DNA of 64,000 nucleotides from an uncultured Hormoscilla sp. GTDB lineage: Bacteria > Cyanobacteriota > Cyanobacteriia > Cyanobacteriales > Desertifilaceae. The position numbers and the translations under genes were made by a program. Each line of letters starts with the position of its first letter. Positions within the stretch are counted from its first letter, which is position 1. The stretch covers positions 5,216,001-5,280,000 of the forward strand of contig OZ001293.3 of NCBI GenBank assembly GCA_963921275.4. The letters run 5' to 3'. Positions 33,781-38,841 of this stretch are shown here, piece by piece. The notes under the pieces were generated by a model that was not told the DNA's origin, ran no database searches, and was given only the letters and a program-made list of their open reading frames with translations.

Positions 33781-34179
33781 AGTTAACTTCACAATGCATA
33801 GAGAAAGTGAAAACACTTGGGTCATGCTGGAAAATAAAAGCAGTACTGTCCTCGATGCACGTCTAAGTCTACAATTAAAATTTGGCGAACAAGCCCTATT
33901 TTTTACATAACCTGGGGGGCGATCGCCAGATGTTTAAAAATGCAGAAACCAGAATCATAGCTAGGAAAAGCATGATGAGTACCGCTAGCAGTATTGCAGG
34001 CCAAACTGTGATGCAAGGCTAATTGAGCTGTGAGAATCGTCCCTGGGCCTTGACATCGACTGTACTTTCATAGTAAGGTTGCACAATTACGGGATGATTT
34101 AACCAGATACAGGTATGAAATCATAACGTAAATAGTATAAAAGTAACTTAATTGAAAGCTTTAACATTTATTCGGATTT

Positions 34180-34780: not shown

Positions 34781-35398
34781 CTCCTTGAAATCATATATCA
34801 GCCTTAATATCCATTATACCACTGATTGGTACTACTGGGTAAAATTAGCTTATACTGATTATAAATTTATGATAAGCTATTGCAGATTATCATAATCTGC
34901 AATAGCTTATCATCCCGTGATTGTGCAACGCCAGCTCGTACATATGCTGGGGCATGGACTAGTAGTCCACACCGCAAATATATCTGATAATATAGCTAGC
35001 CGAGGCAATAACTTGCGTCAGGATTGGCTGAAACCCTTGCCGGGCCATAATTTCAGTGGTGCTCCCTACCGCAATAAGAGCACAAATGTTGGCTAGTGTG
35101 TTATAATCACAGCTAAGTTACAAAAACACAAAACGAAAGAACATGGCCCGACCGACGAAACCGCTCAACCTCATGCCAGAACACTCCCGAACTGCTCTCA
35201 GGGATTGCCCGCAGTCGTGAAACGCCGCACAGGTGGTGCGGACACAGATTGTCCTGAAAGCGGCCGCCGGCGATAATAACAAAACGATTAGCCAAGACGA
35301 CATGTGGGAAGATCCTGTCGGTCTTTGGCGGAAGAGGTGGATAGAGGGTGCCCATGAGGACCGAAAAATTCGCGGGTAAGTCTAAAGAATTGCGGGTA

Positions 35399-35483
35399 GA
35401 TGTTTCCCCTTTTGTGCGACTACGATGTTTCCCCTTTTGTGCGATTAGCGCTCCCGGGAAACATCGAGCTCTCGGGAAACATC
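35399..35483 (+). repeat. two nested 44-bp mini-hairpin elements inside an IS630 gene
   Basis: absent from the homologous IS copy near 60130-60150; inner copy 35423-35466. Confidence 0.85.
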
Positions 35484-36348
35484 GTAGCGGATTGGCAAGC
35501 TAAAGGCAGACAAACCGCGCCCTGGAAGCCCTGGCATATTCAGGGCCGAGCAAGTGTGCCAAATCATTGCTACCGCTTGTGAAAAGCCGCCGGAATACCT
35601 GAGTCATTGGACGCGAAAAGAGTTGGTACACTCAACAGGATTGGCGAGGTATAGCAGAGGAGATAACACCTTCCACCGTCGGTCGTTTTTTAACATCAGG
35701 CAGACCTTAAGCCGCACCGTAGCAAATATTGGCAAAATCTAGAAGTCGAAAACGAAGCAGCTTTTCGGCCAAGAGGTAAGACTTGTGTGCAAGCTCTATC
35801 ACCAAGCCTCCTCGTTACACGCTCAAGGTGTACATGTGGTCAGTACAGATGAAAAGACCGGGATTCAAGCTAGAGAGCGTATTTATCCAACTCGGACAAT
35901 GAAGCCGGGCAAACCTGAAGCCGTAGAATTTGAATATCAATGGCACGGCACTCAAGCATTGATAGCTAATGGAAGAAGAGGCAACGGGCACTCGTTATCA
36001 GTTCCTCAGTAGGACTTACCCGCACCGAAGAAGACTTTGCAGCGCATATCCACTGTGGAAACTGACCCCCAGGGTCAACGGATATTTATTTGCGACCAAT
36101 TGAATACCCACAAAAAAGAAAGTCTGGTTAATCTTGTGCCTGAGTTGAGCGGCATTGAAGAGGCATTAGGTTTGAAGAGGAAGTCGGGTATTCTCCAAAG
36201 CATGGCTTCCCGTGCAGATTTTTGGCAAAATCGCTAGCCTAGCATCCGCGCAAGTGTATACTCCTAAACATTGCTCATAGCTCAATCAGGTGGAAAGAAG
36301 GTTTGGGATTTTGACTCATCGCTTGCGAGAGACGCAGCAACCTCACGC

Positions 36349-36392
36349 CGATGTCTCCCCCTTTGTGCGAGTAGCGCTCCCAGGAGACATCG
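36349..36392 (+). repeat. 44-bp mini-hairpin element inside an IS630 gene
   Basis: CGATGTCTCC...GTGCGAGTAGCGCT...GGAGACATCG; absent from the homologous position near 56610. Confidence 0.88.
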
Positions 36393-36501
36393 AAGGTTGA
36401 AGAACTCATGCATTCGTATTCTCGCATTCATTGATTTCTTTAATGATACCTTAGCTAAACTGTTTCGCTGGACTTATATCGGTAAGCCGTTGCTCATCTA
36501 A

Positions 36502-37091
36502 GTTATCGGGGCGTTGCACTTCTTCATCAGTAGCTGGCGTAGTTTTAACAGTTGGAGTGCCATCCATTTCTGTAATTAGAAGCTCTACTCCATCTATGAT
36601 TTCTTCTACTGTTTTTTGAGATATTTTAACCCTAGGTTTTTGGGTAATTGCTTGTGCTGAACTAACTGCAACAGTTATACCATAATGTTCTTGTAGCTTT
36701 TCTGCTTCCAAATGATACATCTGTAATTGCTCGTTGTAATGCTAAAGAATAACCCCGACAGCCGATGATGAAAAAGGTCGAATCACCTTTCCCGTTTTTA
36801 CGTAAAAATTTGCTCTATCACTTGTTCCAAACACTCTAGGCCAATATAGTTGTTTTTCTCTATGCATCGACTGAGATTGTTCACAGGTCTTAGCTTTTTT
36901 TTCTCTTGAGTCTTGCCCCAATCTTCAAGAGCCTCTTTTCCCATCTTTGGGAACTAGATGATAAGTTTTGACCGCCACAAGTATCATCGATTATTTCAAC
37001 AATATCCAACATGAAAAACCCTAAATGGGGATGTTCTTGTAATCGCTCTAACCCTGCTGCTAATCAATTGTTTCTTTTCTTCAGGGTTCAT
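36502..37091 (-). mobile_element. degraded transposase (ISKra4/UPF0236-like)
   Basis: KLQEHYGITVAVSSAQAITQK...LLITEMDG fragments with many stops. Confidence 0.55.
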
Positions 37092-37694
37092 CAATTCCGT
37101 CATTATCTGCTCAAGGGCTAAAGGAAAAACAACTGTGCAATGAGGCTAGTCTAAGTAAAAGTACTTTTTGGTACCGCGACAGACTGAGTTGCTGAAAGCC
37201 TGATTCTTGCCTTGAATCTAAGTCTGGTCAAAGTAGCAACTCTGACTTTTCAAACAACCTCTAAATCCTAAGTGGTTACATAGGCCAGAGATGAAACCCT
37301 TACCCAGTCAGGGTTTTATCAAGGGTTGCACAAGTACGCTCCGGCTTGCGAGGGGAAATTATATAACATAATGGTAAACTAACGAGAGGACATTTTTTTA
37401 GTGACACCCATTTGAATGTGGATTTCTCCCTCACCAGATGGTCCCCATCACAGACGGTTGAATTCCGGTTTCACCCAATGACATGAAAACTGTCCGGACT
37501 ATTGTGGAAAAAAAATCCAGTTTTTATTATCCATTTGATTTGTCCCATTCACCAGGAGGTCATCACGGGATGAATTTATCTGTCACCGGTCTTTCCGTGG
37601 CGTCCTGCTGGTCCGAGACTGACTTGACTCCCTGATATTTCCCTCACTCTGTCAGGCACCGGTTGATAAGGCCAAACTGTCACTGACCATTACA

Positions 37695-37927
37695 CCCCCT
37701 CCGGCGTGTCCCAGACAGTGCGATTACGATGTCTCCCCTTTTGTGCGACTAGCGCGAGGCGTCTCCTCTTTTGTGCGAATACGATGTCTCCGGAGTAGTG
37801 CTTCTAGCGCTCTCCGAAGACATCGAGATCCCGGGAGACGCCTCGCCCCGGGAGACATCGAGCGTCCGAGACACGCCGCGGGCAAGAGCGCAACATAATC
37901 AGGGTGGTAAACTAGGCGCAAGTTCAT
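37695..37927 (-). pseudogene. N-terminal stub of a histone deacetylase-family gene, interrupted
   Basis: MNLRLVYHPDYVALLP..PEG resembles the start of cyanobacterial HDAC-family proteins; split by the nested hairpins, remainder absent. Confidence 0.6.
37702..37878 (+). repeat. four-level nest of mini-hairpin elements
   Basis: arms CGGCGTGTC/GACACGCCG > CGATGTCTCCC/GGGAGACATCG > GCGAGGCGTCTCC/GGAGACGCCTCGC > CGATGTCT/AGACATCG, each left arm followed by GTGC. Confidence 0.88.
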
Positions 37928-37966
37928 CAGGTATAATTGTCAGCAGAATCAGCAGAATTTCTGAAA

Positions 37967-38281
37967 ATGTTTGACTTTCTCAATCCCATCTTAGGTTGTC
38001 ATCCCGATCACATCAAAGCCAACGTAGAAATATACACTTGGGCTAGCTGTCCCTTCTGCATCCGAGCCAAATTATTGCTCTGGTGGAAGGGAGTCAAGTA
38101 CCTTGAATATAAGATAGATGGCGATGCCGAAGCCAGAGACCGGATGGCAGACCGTGCCAACGGTGGCCGGACGGTGCCGCAGATTTTCATTAATAATCAG
38201 CATGTTGGCGGGTGTAATGAACTCTATCAGTTAGACGGAAAAGGTCAACTAGATCCCCTGCTAGCTAAGCTAGCCAGCTAA
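37967..38281 (+). CDS. grxC: glutaredoxin 3
   Basis: CPFC active site; TVPQIFIN..HVGGC. Confidence 0.93.
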   Translation: MFDFLNPILGCHPDHIKANVEIYTWASCPFCIRAKLLLWWKGVKYLEYKIDGDAEARDRMADRANGGRTVPQIFINNQHVGGCNELYQLDGKGQLDPLLAKLAS

Positions 38282-38292
38282 AATTAGTAGGT

Positions 38293-38841
38293 ATGTTAAT
38301 TGCAGATCCAACCTATCAGGGACATCGGCGATGGATGAATCGGGCCCTAGAACTGGCCCAGTCAGCAGGTGAAGCAGGAGAAGTGCCAGTAGGTGCGGTG
38401 ATTGTGGACAGCGAAGGGCAGGCGATCGCCTCAGCATCGAACCGCAAAGAGAGGGACTTCGATCCCACGGCCCACGCGGAAATCATCGCCATTCGGGCCG
38501 CAGGGCAAGCTTTACAAAACTGGCACCTGAACCACTGCACCCTATATGTCACCTTAGAACCCTGTCCCATGTGTGCCGGGGCCATAGTGCAAGCCCGCCT
38601 TGGTCTTCTAGTTTATGGAGTTGATGACCCCAAGACAGGTGCCATTCGTACCGTTGTCAATATTCCCGATAGCGCTTGTTCTAATCATAGATTGCAGGTA
38701 ATAGCGGGAGTAATGTCCTCCCAATGTCGCCAGCAACTGCAAACTTGGTTTGCCCAACGACGGGGCAGGAAAAAGTCGGTACTGGTACAAGATGCCGATC
38801 GTGACAGTACAAGAACTGTCATTCAGATAGAAGAAAAATAG
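38293..38841 (+). CDS. tadA: tRNA adenosine(34) deaminase
   Basis: GEVPVGAV, DPTAHAE and TLEPCPMCAGA motifs. Confidence 0.96.
   Translation: MLIADPTYQGHRRWMNRALELAQSAGEAGEVPVGAVIVDSEGQAIASASNRKERDFDPTAHAEIIAIRAAGQALQNWHLNHCTLYVTLEPCPMCAGAIVQARLGLLVYGVDDPKTGAIRTVVNIPDSACSNHRLQVIAGVMSSQCRQQLQTWFAQRRGRKKSVLVQDADRDSTRTVIQIEEK

Follow-up and report, generated by a model that had tools for sequence, protein, structure and literature searches.

A 45-nt hairpin element of Hormoscilla that inserts at fixed points near its own tip

The chromosome of an uncultured Hormoscilla sp. is populated by a 45-nt hairpin element that, as we can state with high confidence, inserts into its own copies at two fixed points near the hairpin tip. 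The element came to notice in a window of 64,000 nt, the whole stretch of DNA analysed here, in which a preliminary description had flagged four copies nested one inside another; what makes the family interesting is its insertion rule and its mobilising enzyme rather than that nest. The unit is best seen in the innermost copy of the nest, a 44-nt hairpin with a 14-bp stem, a T bulge, a 5-bp upper stem and an NNNTA loop, where the upper stem holds an invariant T.G pair (71/71 distinct copies). The element as a whole couples a variable but covarying 14-bp stem to a conserved 16-nt tip. Across the 71 distinct copies, made up of 70 of the 109 available from relatives' loci and the window's own copy, the stem covariation score is 0.432 against 0.137 when shuffled, a figure inflated because the copies were chosen for pairing; tip pairs hardly vary. 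Arm-to-arm template switching could produce such stem covariation without selection.

A chromosome scan returned 272 such hairpins, against 1 in a reversed-sequence control. Strict geometry gives at least 263 intact copies, and left halves number about 600 once nested and damaged copies are included. No replication-strand bias of the copies is evident, GC skew being uninformative. The tip pattern occurs 277 times in the genome that holds the window (G000), 87 times in its genus mate G003 and at most 5 times in any of the other 199 genomes of the order that were searched, and a longer pattern recurs 26-80 times in each of the four genus mates (G001-G004). All 58 exact matches among 185,579 species genomes fall in records titled Hormoscilla. 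The viral contigs searched for the pattern gave no match, Rfam returned 0 matches at E <= 1 for window positions 35000-38400, and a literature search found no description of this Hormoscilla hairpin family. Judged from these genome searches, the family is genus-specific. Long ORFs, some of which may be spurious, contain 47 copies, 39 antisense and 8 sense, a skew of in-frame copies beyond the 3:2 expected from stop codons alone; they include ORFs that we take, from their sequences, to be topA-, glyS- and rimM-like, and the element adds 15-residue peptides to such presumed housekeeping proteins. Orthologous copies (for example at loci L072, L075 and L082 against G000) differ at the same site by swaps of tip-region blocks, GGGTA for CTTTT and, in the loop, GAG for TTT, suggesting gene conversion between copies.

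At ordinary genomic sites, occupied by the 188 of 263 copies that are not nested, insertion follows a separate sequence rule. This was read from filled and empty sites compared between G000 and 2.07 Mb of G001-G004 (part of those genomes), together with paralogous sites. In a loose set, 93 filled sites have an empty counterpart, the difference being exactly +45 nt in 34 and +43-46 in 68. Dropping 52 rows that were nested, poorly aligned or redundant leaves a strict set of 41 unique non-nested sites, with +45 nt in 21 and +44 in 7; the element unit is 44-47 nt long. Junction overlap at these 41 sites ranges from -7 to +4, mostly -2 to +1, with no consistent target duplication. In a 12-kb region rich in the element, mapping of four sequencing runs revealed no clean empty site.

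The rule itself is a spaced motif: (R)AT lies 8-10 nt upstream, and insertion is usually just 3' of a target C. Among 204 dereplicated solo copies, AT stands at -9/-8 in 97 (6.7% background) and RATBW at -10..-6 in 51 (1.4% background), with no target signal beyond -11, where intron-binding sites would lie. The AT motif is one-sided (68 upstream versus 8 downstream among 159 solo copies), and the upstream (R)AT is identical across all arm subfamilies, so it is probably read by a protein; it also sets the orientation of the element at ordinary insertions. In 28 register-clean 45-nt pairs, the target base that aligns with the first base of the hairpin is C in 22, while the second base after the hairpin (+2) is A in 23 (p ~1e-9); the base following the target C shows no T bias (A8 C4 G11 T4, n=27). 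The target dinucleotide is kept at the left junction in 9 pairs, at the right in 6, at neither in 13 and at both in none. In 14 pairs the base preceding the hairpin departs from the target, and in 11 of these it is complementary to the base that follows the hairpin. The right foot reads G-N-A in 104 of 159 solo copies, against 46 by the same test on the other strand, and the 45-mer folded as a circle is predicted to be a dumbbell with a 3-nt loop, for which the commonest closing pair of the GNA loop is C-G (96/204). GNA triloops are very stable in DNA, with a stability that depends on the closing pair, according to PMC3201870.

Two other accounts of target choice were rejected. Pairing of the target with the element's own arm or tip left no signal, guide-like covariation between tip and target being absent (best z 3.9 in 216 tests). 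Nor does the target appear to be a hairpin: the flanks have no complementarity past -1/+1, and empty sites hardly exceed random ones in folding.

Nesting is far more frequent than chance would have it. Another copy encloses fully 75 of the 263 innermost copies, whereas 19 of 5000 random positions (0.4% expected) fall within a copy, which bears out the earlier suggestion that the element's own loop is a preferred target. The expectation of a consensus insertion point held in that a genome-wide parse finds fixed rather than random positions; it was mistaken in the singular, as there are two: 44 nested copies start at host position 26, directly behind the TA of the loop, and another 18 at position 31. 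Recursive parsing resolves 208 simple, 45 two-deep, 7 three-deep and 3 four-deep structures, joined through 51 loop-type and 17 after-loop junctions; one of the 3 nests of depth at least four is in fact five-deep (C1:4157359). This five-deep nest, C1:4157359-4157578 (L234), itself sits inside a different REP-like palindrome. The net gain in length depends on the fixed point, being 43 nt at the loop site and 45 or 47 at the after-loop site.

The two points relate differently to the ordinary rule. The after-loop site fits it when the loop reads GAT. At the main loop site the upstream motif is not in register, and the host gains 43 nt only, 2 nt being lost. Element DNA, counted in simple copies, holds about 146 of 31,446 motif sites, and with the misfit of the loop site this means that the motif alone cannot explain the roughly 70-fold nesting excess; an upstream (R)AT inside the element was accordingly rejected as the explanation of all nests. 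The tip is a general hot spot, since other small repeat families and group II introns enter it too. Among the visitors, a 24-nt repeat and a REP-like 21-nt repeat enter the same tip, for example at C1 5697211, 852755 and 2713627. Whole composites are hardly ever common to unrelated sites (similar in 4 pairs, of which 2 are plain duplications of flanks), so nests were mostly built in place, and movement of nests as whole units was discarded.

Our preferred reading, which we hold tentatively, is that the window's nest records four successive insertions of a non-autonomous element whose single-stranded DNA is copied and pasted in trans, likely by an HUH (Y1/RAYT-like) enzyme. Assignment of the enzyme class, an HUH (Y1/RAYT-like) strand-transferase, is a shade more tentative. 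On this scheme the element would be copied as a folded single DNA strand, and an enzyme supplied in trans would paste the copied strand. Closure of the 45-mer would give a hypothetical dumbbell circle, joined through a stable C-GNA-G triloop, and the enzyme would bind the conserved tip with its T bulge, G.T wobble and NNNTA loop. The tip of a resident copy would likewise recruit the enzyme, and a cut beside that tip would open the 43-nt loop route. A single-stranded HUH-type route is favoured by the strand-asymmetric tip, the lack of duplication, the junction after C and the GNA end; TnpA-REP and IS200/IS605 TnpA read strand-specific bulges and loops, in the sections of PMC8266576 that treat them. 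Several observations tell against it. GTAG lies within the stem instead of at its foot, the base next to the target C has no T bias, guide-like covariation of tip and target is absent, and the main loop site has no upstream motif in register and loses 2 nt. No examined Y1/RAYT gene is flanked by the element, and the 13 of 28 pairs in which neither junction keeps the target dinucleotide, together with the 6 in which the right one does, mean that a clean single-strand paste needs later repair. A more specific proposal, in which the minimal element exists transiently as a 45-nt covalently closed single-stranded DNA dumbbell, with the GNA triloop at one end and a protein-binding tip at the other, and its enzyme reads (R)AT one helical turn upstream of the C and attacks resident tips, is speculative and, taken whole, unlikely.

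Candidate enzymes are present, though at a distance from the element. G000 encodes an intact RAYT (NF047646, 104.7 bits) at C1:2007194-2007724 and one frameshifted RAYT; a third gene codes for a Y1 protein whose HUH motif is damaged, and each of the four genus mates also has Y1 genes. None of the 22 Y1/RAYT loci in G000-G004 has the element beside the gene: the nearest copies to the three G000 genes are more than 3.4 kb away, the intact RAYT has other repeats alongside and its nearest copy 6.2 kb off, and at L161 one copy lies about 1.2 kb from a broken Y1 gene. The Y1/RAYT loci whose flanks were read carry other repeats. No autonomous parent emerged from a half-element scan, the genes between neighbouring copies, IS ends or the Y1 loci. 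A cyanobacterial RAYT (L014/L160) is frameshifted in G000 and intact in G001; its REP, with a 5-bp stem and a TTTA loop, resembles the element's tip.

The mixed junctions might instead reflect a recombinase that makes 2-nt staggered cuts (serine type, IS607-like, or IS110 type) and inserts an extruded cruciform, the heteroduplex then being resolved to target or element bases, such that a 47-nt unit appears to replace NC. Left-kept, right-kept and neither-kept junctions would all be expected outcomes, the -1 and +1 bases are associated with the arm subfamily (MI z 7 and 10), and resolvase-family genes are found in all five genomes. The missing outcome is the pair of junctions that both keep the target (0/28). 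A 45-bp double-stranded circle is, moreover, physically implausible on general knowledge, no repeated IS with element-like ends is present among the self-BLAST matches listed, and IS110 was not found in G001 and carries stops in G000. We consider this route unlikely.

Movement as RNA by way of group II intron reverse transcriptases, with template switching onto a nicked target and a non-templated A, strikes us as improbable. The machinery is certainly abundant: matches to group II intron RTs number 93, 79 and 46 in G000, G002 and G004 respectively, and G000 has about 450 group II intron-like 5' ends, including those of an 873-nt intron that lacks an ORF and is present in high copy number. The element's tip begins GTGCGANT, as do group II intron 5' ends, its conserved wobble is G.U-compatible and fits RNA too, and the terminal A at +2 could be non-templated. 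However, only 2 of 263 copies lie directly behind intron-3'-end-like text, the target signal is absent at the intron-binding-site distances past -11, and the family is present in G001 and G003 with only 3 and 8 RT matches (in fragmented assemblies).

A further possibility concerns nests rather than solo copies. Were solo copies to insert by any route, most nests could still arise by gene conversion, in which an established nest passes its inner copy on to a simple copy by way of the common conserved tip, and the fixed points would then reflect few founder events. Junction haplotypes do recur over unrelated outer arms, and CGAT-ended inner arms occur in 47 of 64 loop nests against 1 of 27 after-loop nests (p 2e-10), a tie between inner arm and junction type that leaves room for conversion from founder nests; the tip-region swaps between orthologous copies and the loss of always the same 2 nt by the loop route fit as well. 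The rarity of composites common to unrelated sites is awkward for such an origin. L031 and G000 offer an orthologous pair in which a simple copy became a nest of the canonical 45-nt geometry, and the entry of unrelated element families into the same tip speaks for real targeting. Gene conversion as the source of most nests is, on balance, quite doubtful, and successive insertion remains the reading we prefer.

The nest in the window, at 37702..37878 on the plus strand, illustrates both fixed points. It consists of four concentric copies of the 44-nt hairpin, one within another, and all four arm pairs that had been proposed were recovered. Copy 1, the outermost, pairs 37702-37715 with 37865-37878 (12/14 Watson-Crick pairs); its left half, comprising the 14-nt arm and the tip up to the loop's TA, spans 37702..37726 and its right half 37861..37878, both on the plus strand as are all the parts that follow. 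Copy 2 (arms 37727-37740/37847-37860, 11/14) has a left part of arm, complete tip and one junction base at 37727..37756 and a right part with two junction bases at 37844..37860. Copy 3, of the AGG-ended subfamily, was inserted at host position 31 (arms 37757-37770/37830-37843, 10/14), with halves at 37757..37781 and 37826..37843. Copy 4, the innermost, is an intact 44-nt hairpin at 37782..37825 (arms 37782-37795/37812-37825, 13/14) with a fold z of -6.1; for the 201-nt nest region as a whole the fold z is -6.5, and 0 of 200 shuffles are equally stable. Copies 2 and 4 start immediately past the host's GTGCGA(T/A)TA (GTGCGANTA) with AG following each, and copy 3 starts 5 nt further on, after TAGCGCG, just as the preliminary description had placed them. 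From outside to in, the junctions are loop, after-loop and loop, and the net gain over the empty site in G001 is 178 nt (45+43+47+43). The double nest nearby (35398..35484, plus strand), a two-deep, loop-type structure upstream of IS630-like ORF fragments, has the same junction as the loop-type copies here, again as proposed, and is duplicated along with its flanks at C1:5466209. A single copy of the 45-nt element lies between them, at 36349..36392 on the plus strand.

Misassembly of a repetitive hairpin is a very unlikely source of the nest: although no single unitig spans the whole of it, overlapping unitigs from X1 and X2 (runs of one study, possibly on the source sample) tile it with 0 mismatches at single-copy depth, a run from a separate study (X5) supplies one contig with its left junction (37697-37746) and another that carries all four right arms through unique flank into grxC (37810-38150, 10 differences), and nests are common to different genomes at orthologous sites. 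Within its family this particular nest is unremarkable, a fossil record in a dead gene with no evident function.

The dead gene is worth describing. The interrupted ORF, earlier called HDAC-like, proves to be the 5' end of a histone-deacetylase-family gene, a stub of about codons 1-19 at 37698..37927 on the minus strand with the nest after codon 16; its G001 orthologue is intact (306 aa, PF00850 E 1e-57). The neighbour was correctly named, being a grxC-type glutaredoxin (37937..38281, plus strand, PF00462) divergent from the stub, an arrangement that G001 shares. Comparison with relatives was informative here: the intact G001 gene holds an empty insertion site with a perfect upstream motif before it, and distant genera (L008, L011) have the site without an insert, which makes the empty state ancestral. 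G002-G004 retain a stub that ends by residue 63, with the insertion site itself deleted; the gene is thus dead in 4 of 5 genus genomes. The outermost copy alone would add 45 nt and keep the frame, whereas the full nest adds 178 nt and breaks it. The nest does interrupt the ORF, as the preliminary description held, but it may not be what killed the gene, which in G002-G004 is truncated without it. The genus is losing the HDAC gene, and the DNA in which the nest built up was most likely dispensable.

Other debris surrounds the stub. A decayed middle fragment of the same gene, about residues 49-186 with stops, lies at 33782..34129 on the minus strand, displaced by IS debris, and the end of an IS-like element (37071..37697, strand unassigned) cuts the stub 4 nt beyond the nest. 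In full this element is 1.25 kb, non-coding, with imperfect inverted ends of about 170 bp; its other copy, C1:3685025-3686274, has a 9-bp duplication and sits inside an IS66-like gene. An identification of the element left of the stub as an IS66 end was rejected, the 1.25-kb element being separate from the IS66-like gene that houses its other copy. A third end occurs at C1:5413958. The X5 contig matches only from 37697, precisely the boundary of the IS-like element, which suggests that the latter arrived later than the nest.

How, then, does the family compare with known small repeats? It works like the SDR/REP/RPE class of very small palindromic mobile repeats. Elhai et al. (2008) are said to have described SDR1-8 of Nostocaceae as 21-27 nt long and nested in their own copies, and we know of no enzyme for SDR elements. 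The Hormoscilla element shares with them that it is dispersed, mobile, structure-conserved and self-nesting; in contrast, it is 45 nt, about twice that reported SDR length, and it forms one long stem with a conserved tip and is confined to a non-heterocystous genus. SDR are set apart here by description rather than by sequence. As presented in the relevant sections of PMC5861425, PMC3116915 and PMC2884548, they are very small, mobile, dispersed cyanobacterial repeats of codon-multiple length, whose conserved structure shows compensatory changes. HIP1 is the target of SDR5 in the section of PMC5861425 that covers it, unlike the spaced (R)AT...C targeted in Hormoscilla.

REP and REPIN likewise come as hundreds of short imperfect hairpins, strand-asymmetric and with a conserved bulge and loop (from the portions of PMC8266576, PMC3116915, PMC6006769 and PMC3733652 that concern them); as those portions also describe, REP hairpins are targeted by other elements and RAYT genes are present in the genome. 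Yet the element lacks both the GTAG foot and the cognate REPtron that define REPs. GT(A/G)G does not stand 5' of the hairpin foot: no GTAG occurs in the flank at -4..-1, the element's own lying within the stem at positions 14-17. No REPtron is flanked by the element among the 22 Y1 loci of G000-G004. TnpA-REP cleaves at CT/CA, as the same portions have it, whereas the element's junction follows C in 22 of 28 pairs with the next target base unbiased. Nor does the element occur in inverted doublets, and frequent in-frame insertion into genes and ordered self-nesting distinguish it further.

RPE of Rickettsia are genus-specific palindromes in frame in housekeeping genes of a host-associated bacterium (in the parts of PMC10969869 and PMC3733652 devoted to them); the Hormoscilla element resembles them in its genus restriction and its in-frame copies in ORFs (the 47 noted above, with the same caveat), and differs in its 45 nt against about 150 nt in those parts, its defined upstream target motif and its deep self-nesting. 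DDE-type MITEs are also non-coding, bounded by inverted repeats and non-autonomous, as set out in the pertinent parts of PMC3733652 and PMC10969869, which give a range of 70-300 bp that the element falls below. It has neither the duplication nor the fixed ends that define MITEs: the 41 strict sites have no target-site duplication of fixed length, and the terminal bases covary with pairing kept instead of being conserved. No repeated IS with matching ends appears among the 20,000 self-BLAST HSPs listed.

These observations place sharp constraints on how elements of less than 50 nt without a transposase move, be they SDR, RPE or untagged REPs. The target motif lies at a fixed distance, the 45-nt unit is predicted to close as a circle through a GNA junction, junctions come out in three ways, and self-insertion has two fixed points. 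Should the single-stranded dumbbell proposal prove true, the same activity may drive many tiny codon-sized cyanobacterial hairpin families, and it would answer how SDR- and RPE-type elements move.

Lastly, G000 contigs C2-C7, none of which carries the element, look like contamination when their translations are examined by eye. On that inspection C3 resembles a duplicated animal mitochondrial genome, C2, C4, C5 and C7 consist of tandem repeats (with a Polinton-like element on C5), and C6 is the genome of a phage.
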